A DNA stretch of 64,000 bases from Blasia pusilla (lineage: Eukaryota): contig CM114271.1 of assembly GCA_050084515.1 (NCBI GenBank), forward strand, positions 44,144,001 to 44,208,000. Direction: 5' to 3'. Under the pieces are notes generated by a model. It worked only from the letters and a program-made list of their open reading frames with translations. It searched no databases and was not told the origin of the DNA. Below are positions 5,011 through 64,000 of the stretch, piece by piece. Position numbers and translations under genes: made by a program. Position 1 is the stretch's first letter; each line of letters opens with the position of its first letter.

Positions 5011-5029
5011 GACACGGGTGGAGCCATTG

Positions 5030-6400: not shown

Positions 6401-6494
6401 ACATGTAAATCTTGAATTCCCGATTTTAGTCATAGTCAGCCAAGTGACCCGTTGACCGAGTCATTGGCATGTCGCTATAATTCCCTATTTTGGT

Positions 6495-21689: not shown

Positions 21690-24390
21690 GGAGATGGACG
21701 ACATGTACATGAGCCATTGGGGTATACGTCATTTCTCAGGTGCAGTGGGTACCATCGACCTAGATGACTTCATCCAAGAGTTGACACATGGTACAACTTC
21801 CAGGAGATACAGACCGCGACACGGTTCAACCCTTTCATGGCATAGAAGGGGTTGTTCCAGCACTTGGAGGGTCCTCTGATGGATGATTACATGGATTTTT
21901 GATCGTTGTACTCAATAGAGATCAGTGCCTGGAGGATGTATAGGGCTCCATGGTATATATCCACTAGTGGTTGCGAGGCATATGATGGGATCGTGAGAGG
22001 AGCGAGACCCACACCATCAGGCCGGAGACTAGATTGAGAGGAGAGCAGTGATACATGCAACCTAGGAGAGACCTCTGGCGGTAGAGGGCCACCCAGCTTT
22101 AGTCCCCCAATGGAGTTCTTCCGACAATTGGGGAAGAGCTATCAGGGCGTACGCACCGACAAGCTGAAGAGTCTATAGGATTTTTAGCGATGATCGGGTG
22201 AGAGTCTAAGAGAGGCATTCACACGCATGCAGAGATTGATCATTGCGACATATGGGGTGATTAAGGCGCAGTCAGTGCATATTGGTTAAGGGTGTTGGAC
22301 AAGGAATTACGGAGGAGAGTTTGGGATGCAATGTTGCTTCACACAGCAAAGCCCACATTGAAGGTGGTCTTCGAGTTGTCTGAGCGAGTAGAGCTCGACA
22401 TGAGTGAGGAGCATGTAGTGACCATGGGATTTTTGTGGGATTCGAAGGGTCGACGAGTAGGAGTAGACCCACAAGTGCCCCAACATGCACCGGTACCACA
22501 GGAGTGGGCCGGTGAGCCTAAAGAGCAGGCCGGGTATCGTGAGCCGATGAGGCAACGGCCCGTACCAACATATGTACCCCAACAAGGACCAGGGTTGGCT
22601 TGTTTGATGTGTGGTGGGCCACATAGGCAGAGGGACTTCCCATATCATGGGAGAGGGCCACGCACATCTCCGATTGCTCAAGAGCCATAGAGGATGCCCC
22701 CACCACAGTTGCAGTGTGATCATTGTCATCGATATGGTTACACTAGGGATAGGTGTTTTGATCTTCATCGAGCGACACGTCCAAAGATAGGCAGAGGGCA
22801 TGGCGGTGAGAGAGTTGGTGGTGGCAAGGAGTTGATGATCGTGGTGGTAGAGTACTATCATCAATCACTGGAGATGGAGGACTTGTACCCAATGCAGCGC
22901 TCCTCACTCGCATCAATCAATTAGAGCAGAGGATTGTTGCCATGACGATGATGCAGCTAGTGATAGGCATAGAGCCGAGAGTATCTAGTGTGGCTCCAGC
23001 CTCCATGTCGTATCAGGATACATGGGAGGACTATATGGGATTAAGGTTTATGTATAGTGCGGCTCAAGTTGAGGTTGTTGCGGTGGTGACTCAGGTTATT
23101 GCAAGAGTAATCGAGCCATCGAGAGGTGGGGTGGAGATTGACCCACATGAGGGAACCGATGGGCGGCAGGCCAGGGTTCCCCAGTCGGTCACATTGTCGG
23201 AGGCACTACATACACCGTCGATGGTGTCTCGACGACCGATACTACCCACATGTGGGACAGGTACGTCAATGTCATGAGGAGTTGGAGAGACGACTCCTAT
23301 GCCATCTCGGGTGGAGCCAGTGCCGACCATGTTGTTGGAGGTGGCCACTAGGGTGAGCCACGCTCCGTTGTTTTCTGCCATGGAGTTGGCGACTTTGGGA
23401 GTTAGACCAGCGGAGGTGTTCCGGCTGGCCGCCACGTTATGTGAGCGTGGAGAGGTGACCACCTCTCATTCAAAGGTAGTTGAGGATGTGATGGACTTGT
23501 CCTCAGAGCAGGAGCTCGTGACGTTCCCCACTAAGTCATGGCATGTGACAGCGGCAAAGTTGGTAGATATGCCAGCTAGGCCAGCGATAGAGCGAGCCAT
23601 GATCACACTAGGTGTGGTGTTGTTGGATAACCGAGCAGGAGTGTTTTGCTTGGCTAGTCCCACAGATACGGTGTACCACCAGCAACACGTCCTACTTGGT
23701 TCAGGAGCGCAACCCTTGATGTTAGGGAAGGCGGAATTTTTGGCGTTGGGGTTACAAAAAGGCGACATTGAGCTTTTTCCCTTTTAGATACAGATCTCTA
23801 TTGGGGACGTATCACCCACGCAGTACATGATTCGACAAGAGTTGGTACTTAGATTCAAGCCAGAGCATGAGACGGATAGTGCGATGGTGCACACTCGGGC
23901 GATTACGACACCGGCGGAGTCGTATGATGTGTTGGTAGGGAGTACGGTGTTATATCCCCTTGGGTTCATTTTGGATTTTTGGGAAGAGACGGTTTCTTCT
24001 CGGCCAGTGTGGCGATCAGGTGATAGACGGGTGAGCCATCTACCAGTGTTGTTTGCAGGGAGTGGTGGTGATCAACCACGTGAGGATACGGTGACCACGT
24101 TGGCAGCATTCACAAGTGGTGTTCGATGATCAGAGGGTTTGGGGAGAGGGGCACACATACAGAAGACATTCCCGTAGCGGATAGTCCCACTTAGAGACAT
24201 GTCAGGGTGGGTGTCTCTTCCCATGGTGTAGAGCTTCTTTATTGTTGTTGGAGATGATTGTTGAGATGCGTGGAGTGCAAATGAGCTCGTGAGGCAGGCG
24301 TGGAGCCGTGCCTATGTTTGAAGCAAGGTACGAGAGTTTTAAATCTCTTCAAAGGGATCAACACGATGGGTTGCTGCAGTATGGCAGTGT
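21690..24390 (+). pseudogene. Gypsy gag (two zinc knuckles) + protease, truncated at methyltransferase motif I
   Basis: CLMCGGPHRQRDF and CDHCHRYGYTRDRC knuckles; VLLGSGAQPLMLG protease site; YDVLVGSTVLYPLGF; RVLNLFKG at about 24331-24356. Confidence 0.85.
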
Positions 24391-24462
24391 TGCGGGGACG
24401 ACGGCACTAATGGTGCCAGATGTATATAGGATGGTAGATCATGTTAGGTACATAGGTGTTTA

Positions 24463-25210
24463 CTATCTGGAGTTAGGGGGACCCAACTGCCAGCTAGGGT
24501 TGCGGTTGTGGGGTCTCAATGTATATGTGTGTATTTTTTGGTTTATGGATGGATCGACCCGTGTGTTGGGAGCAGCGATGTGTATGCGCATAACAGTTGT
24601 CACATCTTAGTAGCCGATAGGTAGAGATCTATCGTGGCGACGGCATAGAGAGCCAGCGGATTGTTTCGAGTGTAACTTCATCCCGAGGTGTCGGATGAGG
24701 TTGAGGATAGGTCCGTTGTGTCATGAACGTTGTTTCGGAAAACTTTCCTATTGAGGTCTTTCACAGCCGGGTGACTTGTTCACCACGTCACCTAGATCTA
24801 GTAACCTCTGCGTGAAGGTTACCAGAGGGGGTTGCTATTTTTAGGGGAAGAGCCTTTTGGCTCTTCCCATACCTATATAACGCAGGAAGATGGCTTTCTC
24901 AAGCCAACTTTCTCATGTTGGGCCGTTGGAGCACCTCTCTTGTTCGTGTGTGGGATAGGACTAGGGTGCTAGCGTCTGGATTCCTTGGTAGCGTAGGGTG
25001 GACGAGGCTCGACATGCGAATGTAGACTGAGGAGTAGAGTTTTAGGCCGGGTGTGCCATTTTTACTACTCTTATTTTTGTTGTGGGATCTTGATGTGTAT
25101 GTGTGTGTTGTTTGGTTTATGGATGGATCGACCCGTGTGTTGGGAAGATCGATGTTGTGTGATGTGTAGATGTGACCAGCGATGTGAGTTGTGTAACGAT
25201 GTGTATGTTG
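24463..25210 (+). repeat. 3' terminus: PPT block + B1 (~24505-24595) + gt + A2 (24598-25078) + B2 (~25079-25210, end eroded)
   Basis: ggtttatggatggatcgacccgtgtgttggga occurs in both B copies; junction gcgcataaca-gt-tgtcacatc; A2 aligns to 49101-49580. Confidence 0.85.
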
Positions 25211-29459: not shown

Positions 29460-32400
29460 TTATCGTGTGCGCATGGTCCTCATGCAATCTTTAACCATTG
29501 TGAGTATGCGCGGGAATTCAAAGAATGCAATAGATGCTTCACCCTCTAGCCCTACACGGGTACATCGATTGTTCCCTGACAAGTTGTTACATGGGCTCCC
29601 TCCAACGACGAGGTCAAACCCACCAAATCGGGAGACTAGCTTTCTTACTACATCCAAATCTAATTCGTTCACGTCGTGATAATCATGAACAAGAACACCT
29701 CTCTGCCTAGTACTTTTCCACCAGTACTTTAGAACACTTCTTGCATTTTCATCGATTTCAACACTGACTACGACTTTTAGATGTATCCCCAACTTATGCA
29801 GCGCCACTTCTGCCCCTCCGATTCCAGTGAACAGAGACAAGACTCTCATGCCTAGAGGGAACAGGGGCTTCAACACCGACAAGTGATAGGCGACGGTGTT
29901 TACCTGGTAACTGTTTCCCAGCAGCTTGGCTCGGTTTATGTTTGAAAAGACACTCCGAGTGTGATGTCGATTGAAACCCATGATTATCTCCGTCTCTTCC
30001 ATGGTTAGAGGGGACAATTCATAGCTGTTGTGCCATACAAGATTCCATTTCCTTGCCCAAAACATGAAATCCGCTTTCTCGTCTTTAGTGGGATCCCTAT
30101 CCTCATCAATCGATTTTTGCAAACACTGCATAACTTTCCGTCTCACAAAATGTGATGCAATCGATGTATTTATGGTACACAACTTCACCCGATCATCCCA
30201 CCTTGGCCAGCTTTTATCTGTGCAGTTATGATCCATTACAGCTTCCTGAATGGTCATAGGTGGCTTGGGAAGGAGGTCAAGCCTGCCCTCTACTGGCAGG
30301 TTATGTATGTATCCTCGAGGCCTCCGACAGGCAGTGAAGTTCAAAGAATCAACAAACTCTGGTTTGATGTTGTATAAATGCCTCTGAATGTTCTCCCACG
30401 AACCCTTCGGGGTCGTGCAAACGTTTTCAAAATAAAAGTACGGTGGGCCCTTCACATCTTCCGGAAGATATCGGGGAATCACTGGGTAACCTGGTACTCC
30501 AAAACCTGTTCTGTTAGTTTTGATTTTGGGGATATCTCCTGGAGAGGGCAGGGCCCCACGTTCCACACGCTTAGTTTTGAGTGAAGCATTTTTTCGTCGT
30601 TTGACTGGAATGCTTGAAAATCCATCCTGCTCAAGCATTCCCCAGACGCACAAACCACCAATGTTCAGTGAAGAATACCACCATCAAAATGGCCTTCAGA
30701 ATGCCAAATTTTTTCATTCCCAAGTGTATGTTTTGGGAAACACAAGATGGAAAATTGGAAATATTCTGCATGAACATGGCAGCAAAAGCGATTTCCCATG
30801 ATCTCAGAACAAAACTTTCCATCCCAGCAGTTGTTATTCTCTTCTGCAAAGGGCAATTACCTTGCTCGACCGTTTGCCAGATTTAGCGAGATAAGGCATA
30901 GAGAGCTTCTGGTCATCATCCTGTCCCAAAATTGCAGAATACACAATGACAATAAGAACCCATCTGTGAATCAGTGCTCGTGATAGTTAGAATGCAAGGA
31001 CAGGAAGATAGAAGCCTATCTCCACAGGAGATAAGATGAAATAACTCACATCATCTTCAACGTTGTTTCGAATACATTCCTCCTCTGCCTCGTACTCCAA
31101 AGCCTCAATGAAGTTAACAAGTTCATCAATCTCACCATCAGCTACAACCAGCCCTCTCCATGGTTAAGGACTTTCACCCAAGAAAAGAATACAAACTGAA
31201 GAGAAACTCTTGCCGAGAGAATGCGAGCGATAGTGAGCAAATACAAGCCACTGTGGATAACCAAATTCCAGGGAATCTGTAACTCGGACGATACATACCA
31301 TAAGAATCGAGGGCTCTTTTGCACGCAGGAAGTGAATATTCCATTTTCAGTAACTGTCTGAGCTTCACCCAGTATGGCGAACTTCCCTCGAGAAACTCTA
31401 TGAGGTCATCCTCAGATGCATCTTCCCCTGAATCCCACGACCCCAGTGCCAGTTCTGACTTAGAGAGACATGGCGTTGTGTCCCGACACCTTAGCACCGA
31501 CTGGATTCAACACTGGGCAAGTAAAGGCTATGGCGTTTAAAGTCCAACAGTTCACTGCAAGTGATGGTCAACAGATATAACTAAGGGGTAAGAGGTAAGG
31601 GAGTCACCCATACCACAAGCCTCAACAGCTTGAGATGCGTTGTCTGGATTGAAACCCATCATTACCAATGACTTAGCAGGTTTCCCTTGAAGACATTTTT
31701 TATCAGGCAAAAGTAATTCTGAATTGTTCATCTCCTCATCCAAGTACTGGTCCTCACCCTTCAAACACAAACGAGAATGTTGCTTCAAAAGTTGTTAAAA
31801 CAAGTGACAATTACAATTGCTACATAATGCACAACCTATGACAACATATCATATTAACAGAGCAGTGATCCACATTTATGAGTGAGGCAAGGAATATATT
31901 ACATGGACACTTGACCATGCAGCAGACCCATAGACTTATACTAGAAGGCATGACCCTGCTTTCAATGCTTACCCAATCGGGATCACTCTCGGGATGTATT
32001 TTCAGATGCCTGAGGATATAATCGCAAAGTTCATCTAGACTTTTGTCCTCTCCTGCATGGATCAGACACTTGAGAATCAGATATTATAGAAGAGGAAAAG
32101 CCACAAAAAAATACACAAACACCACAATACTACTGTGGTTGTTGTCAAAGGCACCTAACATTATGGCATCAGAGTGATTCAGTGGGAAAACTGGTTAAGT
32201 CAGAGAGAAGCCAACCACAAGTTTGAAAAGCTTGTTCCACAAGCTTCTCAGCAAAACCCATTCTTGAAAGGGCGGCTTGCTTTCCTCCTTCTTCTGACTC
32301 CTGGCCCCATGGATCTGAATCCAGGCCCCATGGCTCTGAATCAGGGACATATGGCTCTGAATCCGACCCATAATTAACCTCCTGTGGGAAAATGACCACC

Positions 32401-34534: not shown

Positions 34535-36799
34535 TAGGGCTCCTAAATTCCGGGTACGGTCGGGTTTGGAGGGCCCCTGTTATGGATAATCCCCGTTCGG
34601 GGCGTTTCTCCACCTACATCCGAAATCGTCCACTCGGGAGAATTGAGAAGGAATAAAATATATGTAGAAAAAGGATGGGAAACCCATCACGATACAAAAG
34701 AGGGGGCATGGACAGCCAAAAAATAGACCTCAAGAGACTTTTCCCTAACGACCAAAGACAATATCAGCAACACCTAGAGAATTATGACTACTACTAAGTG
34801 GGCCTCTAGCATTGGAGTCTCCAACCGCCTGAGCCCGCCGAAGAAGCCCATTTGCCTGGGCGCGCTGCAAAGCTATGGAGACCTGTTGCCTACAATAAAG
34901 TATCGTAGTGGCTAAGGATAACCCATTTCTCGACTGGAGATGATGGGCGCAATCCGTAAGGAACGAGTCAAACCTCTCCCCCATCGCCTCGTACATCTCA
35001 ATGGCTAGGGGGATAAATCGATATCCGTCATGAAGTCGACTATAAATGTGGGTCTTCTTGATCGCCGCCGCCGCCACTCCTTGTAGCGATCTCCCTTGTG
35101 CTACCACTTGGGCTCGCACCGCCTCCCGCGTAGGATCCGTCACCACAACATCCGCTACCATCACCTCAGACTCCCTTGTCATGTAGAGATCATCACGGAT
35201 AAGGGAATCCCGCATGGGGTAGTGCCTCTCTCTTTGTACATGGAATCCACTCTCCCGAGCAATAGAGAACATAATATCCCGCACTGCATCGTGAGTGGCT
35301 ATCCTCTCACCCCCAACTGGACACCGTGGCAAATGCACACCAAGTGGATCCAGACTCCGGCGACACTCGCAATGTGTCGAACCAACACCATTTGTTGGGG
35401 CAGGCCCAGTCAAAACCTCATCGCTGTAGTGTAGGTAAGTGGTGCGATGCGGAAAGCCGGGATGAGGGGACGAGCCCCCACCCATGAGCCTGCCCCCTTT
35501 CCGGAGCAAGAGCGAATACGGGCCCGAACCTCCATGGGGATATTCCTGTCCGACGTAGCAACTCTAAACAATGCATCAAAGTGGGCTTCCATCAAAGAAG
35601 ATTGGAGCCCAGACTGTCCGGTGGTAACTAGGGAAGAGAAAGCGGGAAGAATTGCTCTAGCCTCAACAAGAAGGGAGTCTCTACAAGCTGTGAGTGAAGA
35701 CTGAAGTGGGAAAAGACCATCCTCAACCTGGGAAACGTACTGTAAAAGTAGCGGTCTATCCCTAACAAAAAATCGGGAGCAAAGGAGGGGTGCTACAGTG
35801 GCCCAACTCCCTAAAAAGGCTGAAGACGCCACTAACTCAGTCGCTATGAGACCTACTCCACCAAAGGCAATCGGCCAAGAAGCTTGTCTACGAGCTAACT
35901 CCCCCGCGGGGCGCACTCTAATGAGCCGGGTCATAGAAGATCCCCAAACGCCTGCATAATCTTTCTATCAAAGGATCTATACAAGGAAGAAATATGGCTA
36001 GCCGCCCACACGGTCCTACACAGATAACCATGTCTACGGGAAAAACATAACGAGAGGATTCCATAAGCTACTTGAGGGTCACCAATCCTCGTGAGATCGT
36101 CGACATGAAGAAGATCCTCGGTAAGAGCCGCCGCCACAAAACTCGATACAAAGCCCTGGCTCCCGAGTGGGACTCCCAAGACGCGAAGCCCTACAGCAGG
36201 TGTCAAAAAACCGTCGGGTAAATGAATAACCGTTGACAAGCCTAATGAAGACCAAGCCTTGCACTTTCCCACCTTCACCGCAAGGCCGACGTGTGCCAAC
36301 TGTGCTGAAAAGTGCTGAAATGCAGGAACAACCAAGTCTCCAGGGCCAACAATGTGAGTATCATCTGCCAATGAAGGGAAAATACAACCCGGGAAAGCCT
36401 CCACTATAGAAAGAACCGCTCGATAATGAGCCAAAGCAAACAATGCACCACCCAAGGGATCACCCTGACTCGTCCCAGTAGTAGACTCCAAGACCGTGAC
36501 CTCCTCCTTGAACCTACCGTGGTGAAAATAGAGAGTCGAGGGGGCCCCATAAAAAGCATGCATGAAGGGAATCAGACTCGCTATGGGACCCCCTGCGTCT
36601 CTCAGCTCCGTGAAGATAGCTCCGTGAATGCCCGAGACATTGAGTTAAAGGCGTTCTCCACATCAACTTGGAGAACCACCCACTCGGGATGTATATCTAA
36701 ACAAGCCCTCAAACCTAAGGCTACAGCCTCACAACCGGCTGGCGTGGCAACTCCGAACTGGTGCGGACTAAGATGTGACTGGAGAATTGAGTAGCCCTA
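34535..36799. mobile_element. Small TIR element (hAT-like MITE, ~120 bp) split by the CRE-like insertion
   Basis: Left end tagggctcctaaattc; right end reverse-complements to tagggctactcaattc. The halves join when 34648-36791 is removed. No clear 8-bp TSD. Confidence 0.55.
34648..36780 (-). mobile_element. 5'-truncated CRE-like non-LTR retrotransposon (RT + CCHC + restriction-like endonuclease)
   Basis: HQFGV, VDVENAFNS, GTSQGDPLG, LADDTHIVG (RT); CEC..HLPRC, HDAVRD, RDDL..VADVVV, FIPLAIE (RLE). 11-bp TSD ggagaattgag at 34637-34647 and 36781-36791; few frameshifts. Confidence 0.88.
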
Positions 36800-41296: not shown

Positions 41297-46969
<5,673 letters not shown>

Positions 46970-46989: not shown

Positions 46990-47830
46990 CCAGATGGTTC
47001 TGCTGGGGGACGAGAAGTTGAATTTTCCTGTGGGGGTGGTAGATATGTCTGTGGAGGAGGTAGAGGTCCGTCACCTAGACAAGTCAAGGGAGACTCAAGA
47101 CGTGAGGCTAGGATTGCTACTCAGATAGAGCAGTTGCAACAATTGATTGTCGTGATAGCATTAAGATTACCCGATGCCAAATCATTGGCATCTATATCAA
47201 ATGGAGAAACCACATATATTGAGGATCCTGGTTGGATATACAAGGCTCTAAAAATGAAGGAAGTCGTTATTGTTGAGCGTGGAGCAGGCAAAAAGTTGGA
47301 TCTACAGAATGGGGAAGTCAAGAAATACACCAAGCTTCCTCAGTATTTTAGTTTTTGTGAGTCGACAAAGGATCCCATTGATGCATCTTTATTAGAGTTC
47401 AAGATGTATGGTTTTCAGCTTCCAATGTTGGGAGGTATGTTTTCCGGCTAGTCGCTATGCTATGTGGGCGTAGAGGTGGTGTTACTCCCTCACGTTTAGA
47501 GGTGCTTGTAAAGGAGGCGATGGACCTATCGTTGGAGCCTATGATTGGGTTTCCCACCTCAAATTCATGGCACCTTGCGGATGCTAGGATGGCGGAGATA
47601 CTCGCTAGATTGACCTACCATAGATCAAGCGTGCTATGGTTTCTCTTGGTGTTTGTTTATTCGATAACTAGGGAGAGGTGTTCCATTTAGTGAGTCCAAG
47701 AGGTAGAGTGGTTTTTCCGCAATGCTCTTGTTCGATTCAGGAGTGCATACAATCCCTAATGTTGGGGATGGCAACGTTTACAAGATTAGGCCTGACGAGG
47801 GCTATTATGGAGTGTTGCTATGCAAGATAC
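46990..47830 (+). pseudogene. Diverged gag/protease remnant of the Gypsy-DNMT family
   Basis: [39 protein letters not shown] correspond to parts of 52200-53150. Confidence 0.65.
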
Positions 47831-49374
47831 ATACATCCTTCGATGGATCGATGTTGTATAATAAAATCACCCACTATGTAAACTCCTCTCTTAATAAGTG
47901 TTAGAGAGAGTTTTATTAATATTAAGTAAATTAGCTTAGGAAAATAAAAATTCCATATTTAAACCTCTTTAGGATGGCTTATTTGTATGGGCCCAACTTT
48001 AAGAAAAGAGATAATAAGTAAAAGATGGGAGTAAAAAAGTAAAATAATGGGATTAGTGTATTAATGAAACAAAAGCAAAAGTAGTCTTGGTGGGTAGCTA
48101 GGATAGTTAGGGTAGTTTGGAGGATATGAAATGAGTTGATGAGGATATTTTGGAGGAGATAACATGTAACCTACTTATATCAAATGGAGATTGGCTAAGC
48201 CTTGAGAGGAAGCCATGTGGCACAAGATAACATTAGCCCCAGTTTGTACTCTTGAGGATCCCTTGTGAATACATAAAGAGATGGGAACTTCAAGAGTTCA
48301 TCACCTTCTACTTCATTTCTTGAGTTCTCGTGTCAATCTTGAGTGGATGACATTGGACTTGCTTGCTATTCCAGTGAGAATGGATTATCCCTCTTGAGAG
48401 AGTAATTTGATCATGGTCTATTCTTTGAGAGGTTTCTAGAGTGTGGTATGTGAGGAAATGAGAGACTTGTCATCTTCGGGAAATTTAGTCATACTAGAGA
48501 TAATGGATGGTTTTGGCTTGTTATTTTTCTATTGAGTGTGGATTATCCCTCTTGGGAGAGAAACTCCGCCAAAACCCATTCCTAAGGAGAGTAGAGGATG
48601 TCTGTCAAGTATGGATAGGGAAGGAACATGAGTTATACCTGATTTTCCTTTCCTTAACCCGTACCACGTGAAGATTCTCTTTACAGATAGGCACTAGTGT
48701 ACTCGCTATCTAGTTTACCACTTTAGGGAGGCATTCATGAACCATGTCATGCAAAGGGAGGACATGGGATTGTACATTGTATGTTCTTATATAGCAACTC
48801 ATCGATATTAACAGACCTGTTTGAATAGGATTTAACACTAGCTGTGATATTTTTCTTGTGTACAAGCGTAAACTAGTATACAGAGACTTCATGGTTAGGA
48901 ATTTTGGGGTTTGATGTTGTGAAGAAGTGATCGCCTCGACACTACTATTCATGATTCTTGTCGTGAAATAATGGTGGGTTTATATAATAATTTTGTACTG
49001 AGAAAAGATAACTTCATATAGAGTTCATCTTGCATCAACCATGTCCGCCGTAGCTAGAAGGTCCGCCTTTACTCGAAGAAAAGCTCTCAGCACAACAACG
49101 TGTCACAATTGAGTAGCCGATAGGCCGAGATCTATCGTGGATAGGGCGTATGAGCTAGTGGACTATCTTGAGTGTAACTTTTTTCCAAGGTGTCGGATGA
49201 GATTGAGGATAGGTCCATTGTGTCAGGAATGTTTTTTCTGATAATTTTCATGTTGAGGTCTTTTACATCCGGGTGACTTGTTGACAAAGTCACCCGCCCC
49301 TGATAACCTGTGTGCGTAGGTTACCAAAGGGAGGGCTATTTTTAGGGGAAGACCCTTTTGGCTCTTCCCAACCC

Positions 49375-49594
49375 TATATAAGAGAGGAAGGTGGCTTTCC
49401 TAAGCCATCTTTCTCATGTTAGGCCGTTGGAGCACCTCTCTTCTATGTGTGTGAGATAAGACTAGAGTGCTAGCGTCCGGATTCCTTGATAGCACAAGGT
49501 GGACGAGGCTGGATATGCCGATGTAGATTGAGGATTGGGGTTTTAGGCCGGGTGTGTCGTTTTTACTACTCTTTATTTTTACATGAGAAAGATG
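49375..49594 (+). promoter_or_regulatory. TATA box, predicted TSS and self-complementary primer-binding site
   Basis: TATATAA at 49375-49381; catctttctcatgt at 49406-49419 is the exact 14-nt reverse complement of acatgagaaagatg at 49581-49594, immediately after A1. Confidence 0.7.
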
Positions 49595-51409
49595 TCATGG
49601 GGCTAGTGGGAATTTTTTGTGTGCAGGTAGGCAAGCGAGTTGCCTTGGTCGAGAGCCCCTGGAGACGTGTGTGTTGTAGGTGTTGGTTATTTTTCTGTTC
49701 GGAAGACCGTGGGCGGAAGCGCTGTCCAATTTTCTCAGATTTTGCTGGTGCGGATTGATGGGGGACAACAACCGAGTGAAGTGTATGGTGGGGCGTTGGG
49801 TGTACGCGAGTGAGGGATGTCGTGAGAGAGAAGAAAAGAGCAGGTTTGAGTCTTGTAGCCGCCGGGGGGCTATCAAGTAAAAGCGGCTAGCTAGGGGTCT
49901 AGAACTAGGGTTAGGGCGTGTAAAGCGGGCAGAGTCATTGGGGCCGCGAGAGTTGTGTCACCGGAGTCACAAGGACCGGGAGTAAGAGCCGAGAGCCTGA
50001 ACCCGCGCGTCAAGAAGCGCCGTGCGAGGAGGTTGGACGGCCGGAAGGGAAGAGAGAGGGACGGGCCGCGTGCCCATACAGGATCGCGGCTCCATAGGGA
50101 GCCGCGTAGGTGTAGTTAAGGGGTTAGAAGAGAGTCGAGGCTACATAGGGCAGCATGCAGCCTGCTAAGCTGGGAGATCCAGGGATGGGAGTGCAGAGCT
50201 GGCGCGTACCACGTAGGTTCGTCTAGGGCTCTAGGGAGCCACGTGAGCTCCTAGGGTCGCGTAAGAAAGAGGAGCCCTACATAGGGCAACGTGTCGGCAG
50301 AAGGGAGAAGCAGGGCCACTGCCCCATAGGGTTGCGTGCCCTCAACGGGCCACATAGTCCCAAGGCCCCGTCAATGGCTAAGGCCGCGTCAAGCAGGGGA
50401 ATTAGTCGGAAGGAGCTGAAGAAGTAGCAAGATTCCAAAGGGAGCCGTGCCAAGGAAGAGACGGAAGAGGGCATGTGAAGAGCCCATGAGCGGGAGTTAA
50501 AGCGTCCATAGGGACGCATGTGGGTAGTGCGTACACGTGGAGACTAGGTAAAGCAAGGACGTTGGCCGTGATAGAAGTAGAGACGTGGTATAGAGCTACG
50601 TGGTGAGACCAGATGGGTTGGGTCCGTTCGCGAGCTAGTGTGGTGGGATTCACGATGAGCGTGGCTAGAACTTTGTTGACTGGGGGCGAGACAAGTGATC
50701 CGCACCGATGGTTTGCGATGGAGTGTTAGTATGTTGATGCCAATGGGTAGTCTGCATCCAGTGATGGGAGAGTTGATGTGTGTTCGAGGAGAGTATCGTG
50801 CTACGGAGATTGCTGCATCACATGGAGGAGTGCATGTTGACGGTATGTAGGTTGGTGGGCATGATCAGGTTACCCATTCAGTCCCTTTTCCCGCACTTGT
50901 TGTGTGTGATTGAGAGTGGTGGGTATCGGGTAGTAGCTGGTGCTAGGTGGGTGCAGTGATGGTGACGAGTGTAGATTCTATTCATGTGTAGCATGTTGGT
51001 GGATATACCGCGGTTTCCGAGTAGGGGTCGCGTGTATGACCCGAGAGAGTGTCGCTAGGTTAGGTGAGTCAGTTGGGGGGCTCATGGTGAGCCCGAGTGT
51101 TGAGTGTGCGTGAGGCCAGGTATGTCATCACGGGATTGATGTTAGCATAGGTGAGTTAGTGAGGAGTGTGGGAGACTCTCGGTGAGTCTGAGTGCTTGCG
51201 CGGGTGAGACATGGTTTGTCATCACGGCGTTCTTCCAGAGTTCGGAAGAACGGAGTAGTCACGAGCAGTAGTAGTGGTGTGACACGGAGTGAAGTGAGAT
51301 ACCGAGGGGTTGCCAATGAGGAGCTACCTCGACATCCATCCGTAGCTGGATCGTCATCACTAGACATTGGGTCTGGTGACGAGATTGCAGACAGAGATAG
51401 TAGTACTAA

Positions 51410-54400
51410 ACAGGAGATGGACAACATGGGCCATCGGTGCATGCGTCGTTTCTTGGATGCAGTGGGCATCATTGACTTAGATGATTTTATCCAGGAGTTC
51501 TTCCGATAGTTGGGGAAGAGTTACCAGGGCGTACGCACCGACAAGCTGAAGAGTCTACAGGATTTTCAGCGACAATCGGGTGAGAGTCTGAGAGAGGCAT
51601 TCACACGCATGAGGAGGCTGATCATTGCTACGTATGGAATGACTGAGGCGCAGTCAGTCCAATATTGGTACGGAGTTCTAGACCGAGAACTACGGAGGAG
51701 AGTCCGAGATGCGGTGCTGATTCACACTAGCGAAGCTCACATTGAAGGTGGTCTTTGAGTTGTCTGAGCGTATTGAGCTCAACATGAGTGAGGAGCAGGT
51801 AGTGACCGCTAGATTTTCTTGAGAGTGGACGGGTCCACGAGCGACGGTGACCCCACAGGTGCCACAACGAGCACGAGTACCATGGGAGTAGGCCAGTGTG
51901 CCTAGAGAGCAGGGAGGGTACCGTGAGCCTATGAGGCAATGACCCGTACCTACATATGTTGCCCAGTAGGGACCGATGTGGTCTTGTTGGCCGTGTGGAG
52001 GGGCCCATAGGCAGAGAGACTGCCCACAATATGGGAGAGGACCACCAACGCCTCCGATTGCTCAGGAGCCACAGAGGATGGCTCCACCACAGCACCAGTG
52101 TGACTATTGCCACAAATATGGTCACACTAGGGATAGATGTTTTGACCTTCGCCGAGGGGCACGTCCAGAGGTAGGCCGAGGGCCTGGGGGCGGTCGTCCT
52201 GGAGGAGGTCGGGGAGTCCTTCTTGAACGTGGTGGTAGAGGACCACCACCATCCAGAGGAGATGGAGTAGGAGCACCAGAGCCGCCACTTCTCTCATGCA
52301 TTGATCAGTTGGAGCAGAGGATTGCTGCCATGACGATGATGCAGCTTAGGGAAGGCACGAAGCTGCGAGCAGCTAGTGTGACTCCAACTTCTACCTCTTA
52401 CCCTGACCCGGGTGAGGATCTCGCCGGTATGGGGTTTATGTGTAGTGCAGCCCAGGTTGAGGCAGCTGCAGCGGTGACTCGGGCTGCTGCGAGAGGCACG
52501 GAGCCATCGAGAGGTGGAGTTGAGATTGACCCACCAAAGGGGACTGATGGGCGGCAGGCCAGAGTTCCACAGTCATTCACATTGTCGGAGGCACTACACA
52601 CACCATCGATGGTGCCTCGACGACCAACGGTGCCTACAGCTCAGGCATCTACGTCGACGTCACGAGGAGTTGGAATGCCAACTCCTATACCGGCTCGAGT
52701 GGAGTCAATGTCGACCATAGTGTTGGAGGTGGCCACCAGAGTGAGTCAGACTCCACTATTTTCCGCCATAGAGTTGGTGACGTTGGGAGTTGGACCAACT
52801 GAGGTGTTCCCGCTGGCCGCTATGTTGTGTGAGCATGGAGAGGTGAGTGCTTCTTGTTCAGAGATAGTTGAGGAGGTGGTGGACTTGCCCTCAGAGCCGG
52901 TGCTCGGGACGTTCCCCACAGAGTCATGGCATGCCTCGGGGGTGAAGTTGGTAGATATGCCAGCTCGACCGGCCATAGAGCGAGTTGTGGTGACACCTGG
53001 AGTAGTGTTAGTGGATAACCAAGCTGGAGCATTTCGCTTGGTTAGTCCGACAGGGAGAGTATACCACCCCTAGCGCATCCTACTTGATTCGACAGCGCAA
53101 CCCTTGATGTTAGGGAAGGCGGCGTGTTTAGCATTGGGGTTACGGAAGGCCGACATTGAGCCTTGTCCCTTCTAGATATAGACCTTGATTGGGGGCGTGT
53201 CACCCACGCAGTATATGACTTGACAAGATATAGTTGTCAGAGTCCAGCCAGAGCATGAGACGGATAGTGCTATGGTGCGCACATGTGCAATTATGACACC
53301 AGCTGAGTCGTACAATATGTTGGTGGGGAGTACAGTGTTATATCCCCTAGGATTCATCCTGGACTTCTGGGAGGAGACCGTTGCTTATCGGCCAGGATGG
53401 CGGTCAGGTGACGGCCGGATGAGTCAGTTACCCGTGCAATTTGTGGGACGAGGTGATCGATCACGAGGCGAGTCTGTGACCATGTTGGCGGCTTTCACAG
53501 GTAGTGTTAGCGGGCTAGGAGAGTTGTTGGAGGGGAACATACATGCGGAGGATGTCCCAGTAGCAGATAGACAAGCCATGGCGGGTGTCTCTTCCCATGT
53601 TGGCGAGACCTCTTCACCATTGTGGGGTACAACTCGAGAGCTACAGAGGAGTGTCGACGACCTCGTGAGGCAGGCGTGGAGTCATGCTTTTATCCCAGAG
53701 CAGCAAGAGTCACGTGGCGATCAGGCTCTTGGAGTGGAGACATTGACCCCACTGGATACCACACCCGTTGTGTGGCAGTGCCCAGAGGAGGGTGTTAGGG
53801 TGTTAGATCTCTTCGGAGGGATTAGCACCGGATTGGCTGCAGTATTGCAGGCGGGCATACGGGTGCATCAGTTCCTTCATGTGGAGAGATATGAGACCGC
53901 ACGGCGAGTATCATTACGTCACGTGGCGAGATTGGTCCAGAGGTATCGTGAGTTGTTGCCGATATCTGCAATACGGGGATATCACCATACACTACCCGCC
54001 GACATCTCTTTGGTGGGGGCGCAGGATCTGGATAGAGTTGGCACCATCCATTTGGTGATTGCCGGATGGCCATGTCAGGGTCATTCATCAGCTGGCCGAG
54101 GAGTATGATTGCAAGATCCAAGGTCAGGGATGTTTTGGGAGATGCTGCGAGTAGTACGACACTTGCAAGAGAGTCAGACATGTTCTCCAACGTACATCTT
54201 GGAGAACGTGCCATTGTTGGGAGACACTCGTGCACGTGTGATGATGAGTGTGTATCATGTGAGGTCCTGGTTGGGACATGGTGTGTTATTAGATGCGGCG
54301 CGAGTTGGATCACGTGCCCATCGTCCACGACTGTGATGGATGAACCTGATACCATCAGAGGTACTGAGTCGAGCATATGATGGAGTCCAGAGAGCACCAC

Positions 54401-54930
54401 ATCTCATAGTGGATGCTATTTTGGTCTTAGGGCGTTGATCTCAGGTGGTGACACAGGATGATAGACCACCGTTGGCCATTGCCAATCAGGTGGGGGAGTT
54501 GAGGGCAGCCTTACCTACGTTGGTGAGCTTCCCAACATCCCATGCCTTTTGTCAGGGAGGGCCGGGCATGATTTGGGATGAGGTGACCCGAGCATTGGAG
54601 GAGCCTACAGCAGATGAGCGCGAGAGCGCCATGGGGTTCGCTACCGGTACTACTGCGGTGCCAGGGATGACTGAGGCATCTCGGAGACAGGTGTTGGGGC
54701 ATGCGATGGACCTCAACTGTCTCACATGGATAGTCAGCCTAGATATGGCTGAGCAGAGACGGATGCGAGTGTCATCCATGCCATCACGTCCACGAGTTGG
54801 ACCATTGCCTATAGGGTCTGTACATGCATTGGCTGGGGGCAAGACGAGGAGAGATAGGCACCCATGGACTTCCTGGGACGTCGTTCGAGCAGAGAATGCA
54901 AAGGCGGCTAGAGTAGCACATGTTGTGTGA
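51410..54930 (+). pseudogene. gag - aspartic protease - DNMT3-like C5 cytosine methyltransferase polyprotein with premature stops
   Basis: ORFs starting at 51976, 53272, 54109 and 54445 share one frame. Knuckles CWPCGGAHRQRDC and CDYCHKYGHTRDRC; ILLDSTAQP; VLDLFGGIS (I), HVE (II), GWPCQG (IV), ILENV (VI), AHRPRL (VIII), ERESAMGF (IX), RRQVLGHAMD (X). Confidence 0.92.
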
Positions 54931-55039: not shown

Positions 55040-56153
55040 CGTAATTCATCACCCAGCATAAGGTCATGGTAAGGATTTGACCATATATCATTAGATGAGT
55101 TTGTGGTTCAAGCCAAGGCAACAATGACCAATATGAAGTCTTATGGCGTCTTGGTTGGAGGAGTCATGTTGCACCAAATGTGGAAGCCCCTCGATTATTG
55201 GAAGGAATCAACGTCCTACATACCAAGATGGTAGTGAGATGATGGGCAACTAAGCTCTTTATCTGTTTGATTCATGAGTGGAGTGGTCGAGTGACGAATA
55301 GGAGAGATAGCGACTCTAGCAGCATTCAACAGCATCATCACAAGGCTTGATGATTTGATTGAGGGGCATATCCATGGAGGGGACACACCCGTGCCTAACA
55401 CTTCTATGGAGAGGAGTGTTATGATAGCCGCATCATTTCATGGAGGAGAGGTGTCATTATGGGGCTCGAGTGAGGAGCTTCGACGTTTGGCTAATGAGCA
55501 TGTGCACATGGCATGGAGCGAGATATTTGCACCAAAGCGTGAGAGATTAGAGGAACCAAGAGTGCTATGATGTCGCCTTTGGATACCACATACATTGTGT
55601 GTCGCATCCTAGAGGAGGGTATTCAAGTGTTGGATCTCTTTGAAGGGATTAGCATAGGGTTGGTTGATATTTTGCAAGTAGCAATGCCTGTGTAACAATA
55701 TTTGTACGGAGAGCTTGATGAGGTTGTAAGATGCGTCTCAATTCGACATGTGGCTCAATCACACTTTTGTTTTCCCGACTTGTTTGTTTACATCGGCCTT
55801 ACAAGGGTACCAAAGTTCCCTATTGAGGGACATTTCTTTGTTTTGGGCGCAAGATTTGGACCAGGTAGGGACTATTGATTTTCTTATTGCTAGTTGGCCA
55901 TGTTAAGGCAAGTTGAGTGTTAGATGAGGTATCGGTTTAGCAGACACTCAGTACGTATAGGTTGTTTTGGGAGATGATTAGGATCTTGCGATCCTTGCAA
56001 GAACATCAATCTCGTTCTCTATCATACATTTTGGAGGATGTGCTCATCTTGGGCAATTCACGATCACAAGTCGTGACGACTACACATCAAGTGCATGCAT
56101 GGATCGGCCCTGTAGTGTTTTTGGATGCCGCAAGTGTATGTTCACACCAGTAG
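55040..56153 (+). pseudogene. Older degenerate copy of protease C-terminus and methyltransferase
   Basis: EEGIQVLDLFEGIS, DFLIASWPC, FWEMIRILRSLQE..YILEDV, FLDAASVCSH; homologous to about 53300-54320. Confidence 0.8.
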
Positions 56154-59039: not shown

Positions 59040-61546
59040 CATGACCAAAGTCAGAGAGCTCCAACAGATCGTGAAGGAACATTGGGAAGAAGTATAGAGT
59101 GAAGGTGGAACATCAAGCAAATGGCAGTGTTAGTATTGTTTCTATTCTTTCAAAACCTATGATAGCACTCACATGATGGAGTATTTTACACGAGAGAGAC
59201 GAAAGATAAAGGATGGGAATCATGATACCCATCATGCCAAATCATGTGTGAAGGTCCCTCCTAGCATACAACGGGATCTCCGAAGAAGGGTACTGATGGG
59301 AAATGGACAAAGAAGGGAAGCGAGACCCTCGAGTGAAGTTGAGAAGATGACGCCATTACAAATAGGTTCTACACAAATAGGAAATAGTGTTCAGGTTGTG
59401 TCAAGTGTTGATGGGGTTGCGGACATGCCAGTGTGTGAGACTCTTGAGGAATGCAGAGAAGTTGTTGGGCCGATGCGAGGAAGTAGTAGTTCTGGGAAGA
59501 AGCAATTGATCTGAGGGATTCTTTCAACATGCAAGAAATAGAAGTTGAAATTAATATGTGGGCAAAGTATTTCTACAAATGTGGAATACCATTCAACGTA
59601 GTACGACAAGATGCTTTTAACGAAGCAGTTTTGGCAACAACAAAGGTGAAGGGTTACTCGGGTCCTATTTATAATTCGTTGCGCACCATCCAACTTGAGA
59701 AACATATGGGGAAGGTGAAGGAAAAGGTAGATATCATATTGGATAATTTGAGTTTAGGGGCCACAATCATCACGTATTCTTGGACCAATATAAAGAGTGA
59801 GTGTTTAGTGAACATTATGGTCTCGTGTCCACAAGATGAGATCATGATTGAGTCGGTAGATACCAAGGGGGAATCCCAAACGGTAGAATGGTTGGCAGGT
59901 CACATAGAGAGGACTATCATGTGCATCGGTCCAAAGAATGTGTTGCAGCTTGTGATAGACAATGTTGGAAATGAGCAAGCAGCAGGGAAACTAATTGAAG
60001 AAAAGTTTCCTCATATTCTTTGGGGTGGATGCGTATCACATTCTCTTGATCTAGTATGTGAAAAATGATGAAAATGTCCATGGATGGATATGATTTTTGC
60101 ACAAGCTCGTGAGATGGTAGTATTTTTGAAGACTAGAACTTGGGTGATGGCCGAATTCATGGAAACCAATCGAGTGAAGAGACGATTATTGCTTCCTACA
60201 AACACACGCTTTGCTACAAACTTTATCATATAGGGACATGTCTTAGAATTGAGGGAGGCGTTCCATGCCATGGTTGCCACAAATCCATTTAGGGAGTATT
60301 TCAATGGGAGGGATGCGAGGAAAAGGGAGAAGGCACGAGAAATTGAGACTATTGTGGCCAATCATGATTGTTGGATAAAGGTGAGGAGTTTTTTGATGCG
60401 GCTTTGCCAACTATCACTTTGTTTAGAGAGTGTGATGGTCATAAAGCAATGACGGGGCATATTTATAGCCGTATATTTGAGATAATGGAAGAGACCCGTT
60501 CTTTTCCAATAATCCCATGGCCAGGCGTGGGTGGAAGGTGTCGTGGTTCTTTTTTGACAATGTCCAGAGCTATGGATATGGTTAATGTTATTTCTAGGCG
60601 ATGGGCACTTATCCACAACAAGTTACATGCAATAGGGTGGTACATTCTCGCCCATTACAATCTTCTTGATAGTGTGCAAGACGTCACTTCAAATGTTGAG
60701 TGCATGAGAGATTTCGAAAAATATATGAAACTATATGCAAAGGGGGTGCATAGCCTCAATATCACGGAGGTAATTTCTTTTGTAGGTACTTGTTTGTAAG
60801 AGTTTGGCAACATTGTGAACCATCACAAAGTATTTGTGGATGAGTTTGGTAAGGAAGACGTCGATTCACTTAGTCCCTCTTATTAGTGGAGCATGCACAG
60901 TCAATGTGCACCAACATTACGCTATGTGGCTAAGTCTGTATTAGCACAAGTTTCTTCCTCTTCAGCAGAGAGAAATTGGAGTAGTTATGGTTTTATCCAC
61001 AACAAGCATAGGAATAAATTGAGCAATGAGCATGCCAGGGATTTGGTGTACATCTACACAAACTCAAGGTTTGGAGACAAGGATGTTTCTTGGAAATCAA
61101 GACAAGGACTCATGTACGAGCAATAATTTTTTGAAAGGGATGGACAATAACAAGCTATAAGGGTTGTAGAAGATGGTAGTGAGTCTAGCTTACATGCACG
61201 AAACCGTGATGGCAATCATGAAGATAACCTTGACTTGCAAGATGAGGGCCTATAGGATGTGGATGTGCTATCTGGAAATTATGGCACGGTTGGCATTGAA
61301 GGAAGTCAGGAAACTCATGTCGGAAACACTCAAAATGTTGACTGCGACGGGCTCGGAAGAGATGAAGATGACGATGTAATGGAACATTGGATTCGAGAGC
61401 ACGCTGATAAGCAACAACAGAGGACTTCAAGAGAAGTGAATCTACCCAGCACTTCAACTAACACAACCTACGACCCTCAGATTTTCGCACAAGTAGGAAT
61501 TCAAAATTATTCCACCGAGTCTTGTGAACCTATGCAAGATTCTTGA
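59040..61546 (+). pseudogene. hAT-superfamily transposase (DUF659-type), decayed
   Basis: CGIPFNVV, WTN, VIDN, GCVSHSLDL, TRFAT and the dimerisation motif SSSSAERNWSSYGFIHNKHRNKL; several stops and frameshifts; TIRs not confidently located. Confidence 0.88.
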
Positions 61547-61547
61547 A

Positions 61548-62880
61548 CAAGATGAAAAATGAAAGGACTCCATTTTCATTGAAGGTTTAACGGCGCAGGA
61601 CAAAAAATGAGTTAATAAATTTTTAGGTTTTGGTCACAACTCCATTGGACTTGAAACTTTGCAAGGAATCTACATATATCTTGGGAATCAAATATACCAA
61701 GTTTCAATTCAAGATGAAAAACTTGGACAAGATGAAAAATGGAAAGAATCTATTTTGAAGGGCACAAGTCAAAAGATGAGTTAATAAAATTTGAGATTTT
61801 GGTCACAACTCCATTGGACTTGAAACTTTTCTAAGGAGCTAAATGCAACCTGGAAATCATGCCTAACAAGTTTCAAGAAGATGAGATATTTGTACAAGAT
61901 GAAAAATGGAAAGAACCCATTTTGAATTGGAGGTTTAAGGGAGCGGGTCAAAAGATGAGTTAATAAGTTTTGAGGTTTTGGTCACAACTCCATTGCACTT
62001 GAAACTTTTCAAAGGGGCTAAATGAGCCCACGGAATCATGTCTACCAAGTTTAAATTCAAGATGACATACTTGGAGAAGATGAAAATTGAAAGGACTCCA
62101 TTTTCATTGGAGTTTTAAGGGCGCGCATCAAAAAATGATATGATAAATTTTGAGGTTTTTTTCACGACTCCATTGGACTTGTAACTTTTCAAGGGAGATA
62201 CGTACACCTTGGGGATACTTTCAAAGGAGCTACATGCGCCCACGGAAGCATGTCTACCAAGTTTAAATTCAAGATGACATACTTGGAGAAGATGAAAAAT
62301 GAAAAGACTCCTTTTTCATATGAGCTTTAAGGTCGCGAGTGAACAAATGATATGATAAATTTTGAGGTTTTGGTCAAGACTCCATTGGACGTAAAAAATT
62401 GTAAGGGAGCTACATACATCCTGGGGATCATGTCCACCAAGTTTCAATTCAAGATGACTTACTTGGGCAAGATGAAAAATGAAAGGACTCCATTTTCATT
62501 GGAGGTTTAAGGGCGCGAGTCAAAAAATGAGTTAATAACTTTTGAGGTTTTGGTCACAACTCCATTGGACTTGAAACTTTGCAAGGAATCTACATACACC
62601 CTGCGGATCATGTCTACCAAGTTTCAATTCAAGATGACTTACTGCAAGATGAAAAATGAAAGGACTCCATTTTCATTGGAGGTTTAAGCTCGCGGGTCAA
62701 AAAATGATATAATAAATTTTGAGGTTTTGGTCACAACTCCATTGGAGTTAAAACTTTGCAAGGGAGCTAAATTCACCTTGGGGATCATGTATACAAAGTT
62801 TCAATTGAATATGATATACTTAGACAAGATGAAAAATGAAAGGACTCCATTTTCATTGGAGGTTTAACGACGCCGGTCAT
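61548..62880. repeat. ~180-bp tandem repeat, about 7 units, probably hAT subterminal
   Basis: caagatgaaaaatgaaaggactccattttcattggaggtttaag...ggtcacaactccattggacttgaaacttt recurs near 61548, 61728, 61895, 62075, 62288, 62468, 62645 and 62825. Confidence 0.92.
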
Positions 62881-64000
62881 AAGTTCACAAGTAGCTTCTT
62901 AGCGAGGGCTAACACCCTTAATAGTATGATTTTCCTTATCAAGTAGAATTAAAAAACTTTATAAAATATGTAAACTATTTTTTTATAGAATAAACATAAT
63001 AATTAAATTTATATCAAACAAACATTTCAATCGTTGTACCTTCCACCGTACCCAAGGACTTAGAACCCTAGAGAAAACTTTGATCCATCTCATCAACTCA
63101 CTTTATGGACAACATTCAAAACTGACTCATCTTCACAAGTCTCCAAAGTGAATTTTTTTGAAGTATTTCTTACAAAAAGTGAGTGGTACAGCACATTTCC
63201 ATTGCTTTGAGAGGAACCTCATACTTATGTACATTACAAAAATTTATATATGAAATCATCCTATCTAATCTGATTCATCCTCGTGGAGGGGAAACACGCA
63301 TGAATAAAGCTAGGGGAAGAGATAGAAGTGTTGGTGAGACGTATGCACCGGTGTTAGATATATCTGATGTAACTCAAGGTTGGCTTCACAATCATCTGTT
63401 TCTTGTGTTGGCTGTGTTGGAAACATCTCCCACTCCCTCTCGAAGAATCCAAAAAGTTCCTCCTGCATACAAGAGGGGTAATAGTATGTTCGAGGATATC
63501 TCCCTTCCTTCCTTAGAGGAATATCTTGTCATAAGAAAGGTGGAAATATTAATTCGAGTCTCCTCAAGAAAATATCATCCACCAATGGATTGTGGTAATT
63601 TTTGTGCACAAGTTGTCGAGCAGTGTTAAGAGCATCCCGAACTTCTTGTGCATTCAACCCTTGAGCAAAGAAGAAGTTTTTTGCCTCTCAATCTTGGATA
63701 TTTATGGGAGTTATGTGAATAAGCTTCCCTCGATTGTACATGTCAATGAAGGGGACTAGCCACGCTCGCATAGCCCAATCGATCCTTTGCTGACGTGGGA
63801 TTTCAGCGCAAACCACCCCATCTATGTTGGCTTCGGGGTTGTAATTTGATCGGGGGTTGTGACTTCCCAAGCTGAAAGTGAAATTATCTTGCTCTTGGGT
63901 CCGCTTGCCATGCGTTGGTGGTGCATTACTGTCGGGAGCGCAGAAAGAGATGCCAAAGAGATGATAAAGTCTTCCTGACCAAGCTTGTCTACAAGTTGGA

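Follow-up and report, generated by a model that had tools for sequence, protein, structure and literature searches.

A degenerate Ty3/gypsy-type element of a bryophyte-grade land plant with an in-frame DNMT3-like cytosine methyltransferase domain

Organization of copy A

The 64,000-nucleotide stretch of contig CM114271.1 analysed here (positions 44,144,001 to 44,208,000; hereafter the window, numbered from its first letter) carries at 49.1-55.0 kb the remains of a retrotransposon in which gag, protease (PR) and a DNMT3-like C5 cytosine methyltransferase domain follow one another in the same direction. We refer to this element as copy A and to further copies of the same family in the window as copies B, C and D. 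The component parts of copy A are as follows.

49097-49583 (+): terminal repeat Y (A-type), left of the copy A body; 82.6% identical to 24598-25078 beside copy B
49584-51412 (+): untranslated leader, with similarity to copy B from 50717
51413-52300 (+): gag remnant, matching residues 138-215 and 221 onward of Marchantia polymorpha protein P0003 (tblastn)
51985-52023 (+): gag zinc knuckle 1, C-X2-C-X3-H-X4-C
52099-52140 (+): gag zinc knuckle 2, C-X2-C-X4-H-X4-C
53068-53436 (+): aspartic protease remnant, aligning to the PF13650 region of relative P0019, with three stops
53800-54711 (+): DNMT3-like C5 cytosine methyltransferase domain from the family alignment, with three in-frame TGA stops
53800-53835 (+): DNMT motif I
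54058-54087 (+): DNMT motif IV, with PCQ
54193-54210 (+): DNMT motif VI, ENV
54307-54339 (+): DNMT motif VIII, containing a stop
54610-54639 (+): DNMT motif IX
54682-54711 (+): DNMT motif X
54712-54920 (+): C-terminal tail after the DNMT, homologous to relatives L013 and P0003 up to the final residues
54921 to about 55027 (+): GT-rich terminal repeat X (B-type), right of the copy A body; resembles 24505-24571 and 25078-25161 beside copy B

On translation, 51970-54930 of the plus strand forms a single reading frame that closes with a TGA at 54928 and is interrupted by seven internal stops (TAG at 53071, 53173 and 53179; TGA at 53221, 54106, 54334 and 54436). The same frame reaches upstream to 51739 with four further stops, which brings the number between 51739 and 54930 to 11. 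Residues 221-1245 of P0003 align to 51739-54888 in one tblastn segment, and the frame is therefore free of frameshifts over 3.1 kb. At least six of the 11 stops replace residues that relatives encode as R, Q, Q, Q, R and W, each through a single C>T or G>A change. CpG observed/expected ratios of the family copies (0.59-0.72) resemble the window average of 0.65 and are therefore uninformative about the copies.

Between 51722 and 51739 the gag remnant is frameshifted, and relative to copy B it carries an internal deletion of about 0.33 kb, 21783-22111 of copy B having no counterpart in copy A; its start at about 51413 is a projection from copy B, where residue 1 of gag lies at 21694. In the leader and the beginning of gag, 50717-51499 is 75.9% identical to 20998-21782 of copy B (blastn); the leader between repeat and gag measures about 1.1-1.2 kb in relatives. 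The protease active site (53080-53100) reads DST in place of the DSG (LLDSGAQ) found in relatives. The methyltransferase, aligned to DNMT3A and 50 relatives, presents motifs I, IV (Pro-Cys), VI, VIII, IX and X in canonical, non-permuted order. As read from the alignment, the copy A frame stops about 25 codons short of the point at which relatives enter reverse transcriptase (RT); since it ends where relatives run on into RT, this end represents a deletion junction, and it abuts repeat X exactly, at 54921. Copy A contains no RT, RNase H (RH), integrase (IN) or PHD finger, and its layout is Y, leader, gag, PR, DNMT, X. It is a dead, internally deleted relic without present function, and it marks the family in this genome.

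Identity of the methyltransferase domain

The read-through of 53224-54930, with X at the stops, matches the C5 methyltransferase profile PF00145 at 38.2 bits (E 1.5e-9; cutoff 22). When copy A is cut at its stops, one of the four open reading frame (ORF) pieces matches PF00145, at 16.4 bits and thus below the cutoff. DNMT3A is the best solved relative of the copy A domain (E 2.2e-6). A family profile built from 13 domain-size relatives and compared with the PDB finds DNMT3A at 5.6e-22 and DNMT3B/C at about 1e-20, followed by DRM (3.6e-11 to 2.9e-8), HhaI (3.6e-8) and DNMT2 (about 5e-7), and it gives no match to DNMT1 in the PDB at E values up to 0.001. An AlphaFold2 model of relative P0162 (pLDDT 78.2, pTM 0.82) points in the same direction: its best Foldseek match is the methyltransferase domain of DNMT3A (E 9e-19, target-normalised TM 0.78-0.81), and the top 50 matches are all DNMT3A, DNMT3B or DNMT3C. 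Judged by sequence and predicted fold, the element domain is closest to the DNMT3 enzymes and not to DNMT1, DNMT2, DRM or bacterial methyltransferases. Pfam searches of the family polyproteins found none of the companion domains PWWP, ADD and UBA, and no host DNMT3 occurred among the matches of the word-indexed searches or the 150 best representatives of the profile search.

These results bear out much of a preliminary description of the window made from its letters alone. That description had seen one frame broken by point stops from the gag knuckles through the protease into a complete C5 methyltransferase, with the PCQ and ENV motifs in canonical order, and the frame, the motifs and the PF00145 match are all present as described. 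It had also stated that further copies carry the domain or its start at the same position, which holds for copies B and C (motif I only) and for copy D (a decayed N-terminal half).

Relatives and family architecture

A word-indexed protein search with the DNMT region returned 38 longer relatives and 50 of similar length, and database relatives of this region reach E values of 1e-142 to 1e-147. The named relatives comprise 25 from Marchantia polymorpha, three from Calypogeia fissa, one from Riccia sorocarpa, four from Sphagnum species, two from Closterium and one labelled as a bacterial metagenome-assembled genome (MAG). An exhaustive profile search (E up to 1e-30) places the size of the family at 542 clusters at 50% identity.

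The complete architecture is best seen in P0019, an uninterrupted predicted ORF of 2358 amino acids with Pfam matches to PR at 663, DNMT at 953, RT at 1443, RNase H at 1660, IN at 1925-2090 and PHD at 2300. Pfam places DNMT, then RT, then RNase H in Marchantia P0008 and P0176, and CCHC, a DNMT-like region and the start of RT in Closterium P0201. On metagenome contigs 598 matching stretches were found; 357 of these were confirmed and 80 loci kept, and in seven of the nine long loci examined, DNMT is followed collinearly by RT, RNase H and IN. Of the other two, one ends after RNase H with a rearrangement and the second, L012, is an internal-deletion form with the DNMT joined to the PHD region. 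L013 spans 2163 codons in one frame with two stops, from CCHC through DNMT, RT and RH to the integrase core at the contig end. The Ty3/gypsy Pol order PR-RT-RNase H-IN with gag upstream is present in P0019, L013 and L008, and not in copy A. Among the Pfam families found in relatives (RT_RNaseH, RT_RNaseH_2, Integrase_H2C2 and rve), we take the first three to be typical of Ty3/gypsy elements. At the integrase C-terminus, P0019, P0022 and the window fragment 2227-3705 carry a PHD finger (PF00628), and none of these three gave a Pfam match to a chromodomain there.

The DNMT is a constant in-frame module of the family, with conserved catalytic motifs and a DNMT3-like predicted fold, and it lies in the polyprotein between PR and RT, as the preliminary description had proposed from copy A. 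The absence of RT and IN from copy A is the single observation that would suit a host DNMT3 gene or pseudogene lying beside a retrotransposon by chance, or a one-off capture by copy A. Such an origin is refuted by the architectures of P0019, L013 and the metagenome loci, and we regard it as scarcely credible: the same-frame gag-PR-DNMT order recurs in four window copies, in the Marchantia-labelled proteins, in Calypogeia, Riccia, Sphagnum and Closterium and in the nine metagenome loci examined, and the window's host-type de novo methyltransferase is a separate, permuted DRM ORF (see below).

A second architecture, RT-RH-DNMT-IN-PHD, is found in a sister group of 16 metagenome proteins (P0022-P0037) that form their own starred clade; the DNMT here lies between RNase H and IN, and the module has therefore changed position within Pol. 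In the DNMT tree, Sphagnum sequences nest nearer to Marchantia than the liverwort Calypogeia does, so that the element tree departs from the host tree, a mismatch that could reflect several old lineages or horizontal transfer among bryophytes.

Two further observations concern individual relatives. In L017 and L018, inverted repeats of 468 bp (92%) flank the DNMT-RT part (8707-9174 and 12772-13239 in L017; 956-1423 and 5021-5488 in L018), with a gag piece inverted downstream; the two represent a rearranged copy of one relative, present in two contigs. P0175 is a 455-amino-acid member of the transposon-DNMT family. Its label, DNA cytosine methyltransferase from a Candidatus Obscuribacterales MAG, is probably explained by a eukaryotic contig (2.4 kb) that was binned into a bacterial genome.

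Further copies and terminal repeats

Comparison of the copy A read-through with the window by tblastn located further copies at four places. These copies, together with other family fragments and the repeats beside copy B, are listed here.

2227-3705 (+): integrase-PHD fragment; PF00628 at E 3.5e-8 and PF17921 at E 4.6e-4 on the read-through; matches P0019 residues 1880-2344 (tblastn)
3821-3889 (+): purine-rich pre-repeat block after the integrase-PHD fragment; same block as in copies B and C
5012-6406 (+): copy C, PR to DNMT motif I; 77% identical to copy B and 71% to copy A
6499-7083 (-): part of RT and RNase H from a family member; matches residues 890-1071 of Marchantia P0008 at about 60% identity; PF17919 at E 1.5e-19
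20998-24528 (+): copy B, retaining the leader, gag and PR and, of the DNMT, motif I alone; at the nucleotide level 76-77% identical to copy A
24504-25155 (+): copy B terminal repeats, X (24504-24597) followed by Y (24598-25081) and X' (25079-25155)
47439-47818 (+): small family fragment, family residues 279-399 (tblastn)
55094-56147 (+): copy D, end of PR to DNMT motif VIII; 37-52% protein identity to copy A residues 432-781 (tblastn)

Copy D is the more divergent, with frameshifts, stops and a motif VI that reads EDV; it and the fragment at 47439-47818 may be halves of one older element that was split by insertions including copy A. Copies B and C have one common deletion junction after motif I, which leads into a shared block of about 140 bp (6264-6406 of copy C matching 24387-24528 of copy B) that ends purine-rich immediately before the terminal repeats. 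The presence of this purine-rich block after the integrase-PHD fragment as well ties gag-PR-DNMT and IN-PHD sequence to one family within the window.

Self-comparison of the window by blastn found no pair of long terminal repeats (LTRs) around any copy. The terminal repeats given here derive from copies A and B together with reads and relatives. Repeat Y, which contains a TATA-like CCTATATAA box, may belong to copy A itself or be the 3' repeat of an element upstream, and X may be part of the repeat or of the internal region. Direct joints of 49580 to 54921 occur in DNA contigs from a run with the same species label and in a small number of RNA reads; together with the same order at 25078/25079, these joints indicate that Y followed by X is the common arrangement elsewhere.

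In the relative L026 the coding region lies between direct repeats A1 (1678-2035) and A2 (10353-10691), which are 92% alike, and a second repeat stands on both sides of A2 (B1 at about 10237-10352, B2 at about 10697-10797, 95% alike), B1 being preceded by the same purine-rich block as in the window. The A-type direct repeats lie about 8.7 kb from each other, on either side of the coding region, in both L026 (92%) and L004 (94%); B2 was checked in L026, the L004 locus ending before it. No matching target-site duplication was seen at L026. The layout in L026 is A-body-B-A-B rather than a simple LTR pair, and the same pattern appears in the window as X-Y-X' beside copy B and as Y-body-X for copy A. 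Split direct repeats around a Gypsy-type element with a DDE integrase, as at L026 1678-10797 and L004 5997-15050, are an odd combination.

Copies B and C are just 77% alike yet share their deletion junction, so that a deletion derivative of the family, a non-autonomous gag-PR form, must have multiplied. Copy A could by analogy come from a non-autonomous gag-PR-DNMT sublineage whose members, already devoid of the RT-PHD part when they inserted, relied on full-length elements for copying in trans. The exact abutment of its DNMT end on X, with Y on the other side, would fit such a history, as would L012 as another internal-deletion form. No second copy with the copy A junction was seen in the window, however; the 49580/54921 joints are Y-to-X joints without a body and not copies of the copy A form, and the layout is equally well accounted for by recombination between repeats or by a deletion that came later. 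We therefore consider a non-autonomous origin of copy A rather unlikely.

Host and transcription

The window also contains an open ORF of 407 codons at 29460-30683 on the minus strand that encodes the complete catalytic domain of a circularly permuted DRM-type methyltransferase, with motifs VI-X preceding motifs I-IV. Its identity to plant DRMs is 48-59%, and the ORF probably represents the final exon of a host DRM gene, some 21 kb from the transposon DNMT3 copy; an ORF upstream of it, 31174-31506, gave no Pfam match. In a quick tree with long branches, the DRM ORF falls in a starred clade (95) of liverwort and moss DRMs, beside Riccia (87). In the DNMT tree, copy A falls in a starred clade (99) with Marchantia, Calypogeia and Sphagnum, apart from Closterium. 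From these two placements it follows that the contig comes from a bryophyte-grade land plant, which is probably a liverwort. The occurrence of related elements in Closterium, a zygnematophyte alga, could suggest that the contig is algal or a contaminant, a source mentioned as a caveat in the preliminary description; both tree placements speak against it, parts of the stretch are found in DNA runs of one species label from several studies, and we judge a source outside the land plants very improbable.

The best-matching DNA sequencing runs contain 0.22-0.28 of the sampled window words, and no RNA run was among the matching runs. Copy A itself attracts hardly any RNA reads: at 95% likeness, three RNA runs yielded 19, 35 and 27 reads for copy A, most of them lying only partly on it, and we do not count this result as silence. 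Three RNA runs with the same species label contributed 3, 8 and 8 reads whose match is confined to 54050-54084 (motif IV). By hand translation these reads extend to both sides, in frame, into residues of the family consensus, and their first mate is always on the minus strand. As the reads depart from copy A yet match the family consensus, they derive from a different family member, and at least one other member of the family is transcribed in the window's organism.

The remainder of the window holds remnants of other mobile elements at 16791-18002 (+), 59490-60068 (+), 42490-43206 (-) and 35931-36644 (-), comprising Copia-type gag and pre-integrase, a hAT-type DUF659 ORF and two more reverse-transcriptase ORFs. 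Tandem-repeat arrays at 12217-12993 and 61537-62882 appear as self-match ladders spaced at about 87 and 180 bp.

Selection on the domain and its proposed role

Selection was assessed in a codon alignment of copy A and 17 loci, which remained from 30 loci after 13 with a best segment below 320 residues had been dropped. Between the copy A DNMT and L001-L012, nonsynonymous divergence (dN) is 0.26-0.31, synonymous divergence (dS) is a saturated 2.0-3.3, and the ratio is 0.08-0.15; dS was not computable for copy A against L013, L021 and L025. Along gag-PR-DNMT, the lowest nonsynonymous divergence is found in the DNMT (pN 0.19-0.28 vs. 0.34-0.51 in gag and the PR flanks), with pS at 0.57-0.87. Across the 50 relatives, seven alignment columns are invariant and 44 are conserved at 90% or more, including PC, ENV and residues of motifs VIII to X. 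The DNMT is under purifying selection between lineages.

The most likely explanation for these observations, which we hold with high confidence, is that 49.1-55.0 kb is a dead, internally deleted copy of a bryophyte Ty3/gypsy-type family that encodes a gag-PR-DNMT3-like-RT-RNase H-IN-PHD polyprotein and whose enzyme, in active members, would methylate element cDNA or DNA at the insertion. The preliminary view of a Ty3/Gypsy retrotransposon with its own DNMT thus applies to the family, in full-length members of which the DNMT co-occurs with RT and IN and stands under purifying selection; it does not extend to copy A as a working element, which has many stops and lacks RT, RH, IN and PHD. The further suggestion in that description, that the clade could methylate its own cDNA or insertion site independently of host RdDM, goes beyond the results. 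In active members, the element protease would free the DNMT, or a DNMT-RT fusion, after translation. The freed enzyme could then use S-adenosylmethionine to methylate cytosines of the element cDNA or of DNA at or near a new insertion, and the PHD finger at the integrase C-terminus might steer integration via histone H3 tails, in the manner of the chromodomains of chromoviruses. This proposal follows the hypotheses that de Mendoza et al. 2018 put forward for their own elements (PMC5890265, main text).

Several points weigh against this interpretation. We found no enzymatic or methylome evidence for the lineage, and we infer protease cleavage, the nature of the substrate (DNA or RNA) and what the PHD finger does. 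The window copy has no RT or IN beside its DNMT, so that the link to a complete element rests on the relatives and the shared terminal blocks. The ratio of about 0.1 is a rough, upper-level indication because dS is saturated, and recent copies within one host give 0.37-1.01, as would be expected if much of this divergence is neutral decay after insertion. Between L013 and L008, pN/pS is higher in the DNMT (0.41) than in RT (0.22), IN (0.17) and RNase H (0.15), in a comparison with approximate domain borders and in which L008 is itself decayed.

This weaker constraint on the DNMT than on RT, RH and IN would also be compatible with a module that is kept for RNA methylation, for DNA binding or for a structural role in the particle, and not for cytosine methylation of DNA. 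De Mendoza et al. 2018 were unable to demonstrate de novo methylation of DNA by one of their retrotransposon DNMTs and suggested that its substrate is RNA (PMC5890265, main text). The catalytic cysteine of motif IV, ENV and the S-adenosylmethionine-binding glycines of motif I are nevertheless conserved at 90% or more in the 50 relatives, and the nearest relatives in sequence and fold are the DNA methyltransferases DNMT3A/B/C and not DNMT2. A role other than DNA methylation appears unlikely to us, more so than a non-autonomous origin of copy A.

Retrotransposons are normally targets of cytosine methylation. Should the bryophyte family prove active, Marchantia, for which host methyltransferase knock-downs and methylomes exist, would allow a test of how a transposon benefits from methylating DNA. 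With its PHD reader, two domain orders and large public representation, the family should also be useful for understanding how mobile elements assemble epigenetic tool sets.

Comparison with known systems

A 2018 study reported methylase-carrying elements in dinoflagellates and a single charophyte alga (PMC5890265, main text). The closest of these to the bryophyte family is KnitGypsy-Dnmt3 of Klebsormidium nitens, described there as an in-frame, non-permuted, intronless DNMT3-like domain in a Gypsy-type Pol; the domain keeps its key residues and is under purifying selection (Ka/Ks below 0.2). Both systems have an in-frame DNMT3 domain inside a Gypsy polyprotein and show purifying selection. 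The repeat layout of KnitGypsy-Dnmt3 is given as that of DIRS retrotransposons, A-coding-B-A... (legend of Fig. 4c of the same paper), and the A-body-B-A-B repeats of L026 and the window copies resemble it, a likeness drawn from the paper's description and not from sequence. The bryophyte family differs in its hosts, which are liverworts and Sphagnum mosses and also Closterium, and in an integrase that ends in a PHD finger; the main text of PMC5890265 contains no mention of PHD, Marchantia or liverwort. No K. nitens protein was found among our named matches or the 20 representative clusters looked up, two of which were named, both Closterium.

Because its layout matches that of KnitGypsy-Dnmt3, we assign the family to the known streptophyte Gypsy-DNMT3 kind, as a member from land plants. 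The land-plant Gypsy clade envisaged in the preliminary description is accordingly upheld as to its bryophyte-grade host, but with repeats laid out as in Klebsormidium and the same gag-DNMT-RT order in Closterium it is probably an extension of that kind and not a separate invention. It is conceivable, although doubtful, that a single ancient Gypsy lineage, equipped with a DNMT3 module, DIRS-like split repeats and an integrase ending in a PHD finger, persisted in or spread from the charophytes Klebsormidium and Closterium into liverworts and mosses, where it would still be transcribed and would add de novo methylation beside the host DNMT3 and DRM, a sister lineage having moved the module between RNase H and IN.

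In our literature searches we found no description of DNMT-bearing retrotransposons in liverworts or mosses; the supplements of PMC5890265 and PMC12344493 may list land-plant copies, and later papers, in the text available (PMC12344493; bioRxiv 10.64898/2026.05.21.726589), cite for streptophytes only the 2018 source.

In Symbiodinium, SymbioDIRS-Dnmt3 and SymbioLINE-Dnmt have a C5 methyltransferase within or next to Pol (PMC5890265, main text). SymbioDIRS-Dnmt3 shares with the bryophyte family a DNMT3-type domain on a retrotransposon, but the Symbiodinium elements are built on tyrosine-recombinase DIRS or LINE backbones and reside in dinoflagellates, whereas the bryophyte family has a DDE integrase (rve, Integrase_H2C2) and the order gag-PR-RT-RH-IN. 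Host bryophyte DNMT3 enzymes include MpDNMT3b (Mp5g09290; bioRxiv 10.1101/2021.02.12.428880), which is functional in Marchantia sperm, and PpDNMT3b (PMC6453930). The host DNMT3 and DRM enzymes belong to the same catalytic superfamily as the element domain, which differs in being embedded in a polyprotein, and DRM differs further in its circular permutation.

For PHD-tipped Gypsy integrases, we found nothing in the literature on Chlamyvir or green-algal LTR elements. PHD fingers may also occur on some algal Gypsy lineages, and chromoviruses are Ty3/gypsy elements with a chromodomain after the integrase. Chromoviruses and the family described here thus both carry a chromatin-reader domain at the C-terminus of a Ty3/gypsy integrase, which is a chromodomain in the former and a PHD finger (PF00628) in the latter.

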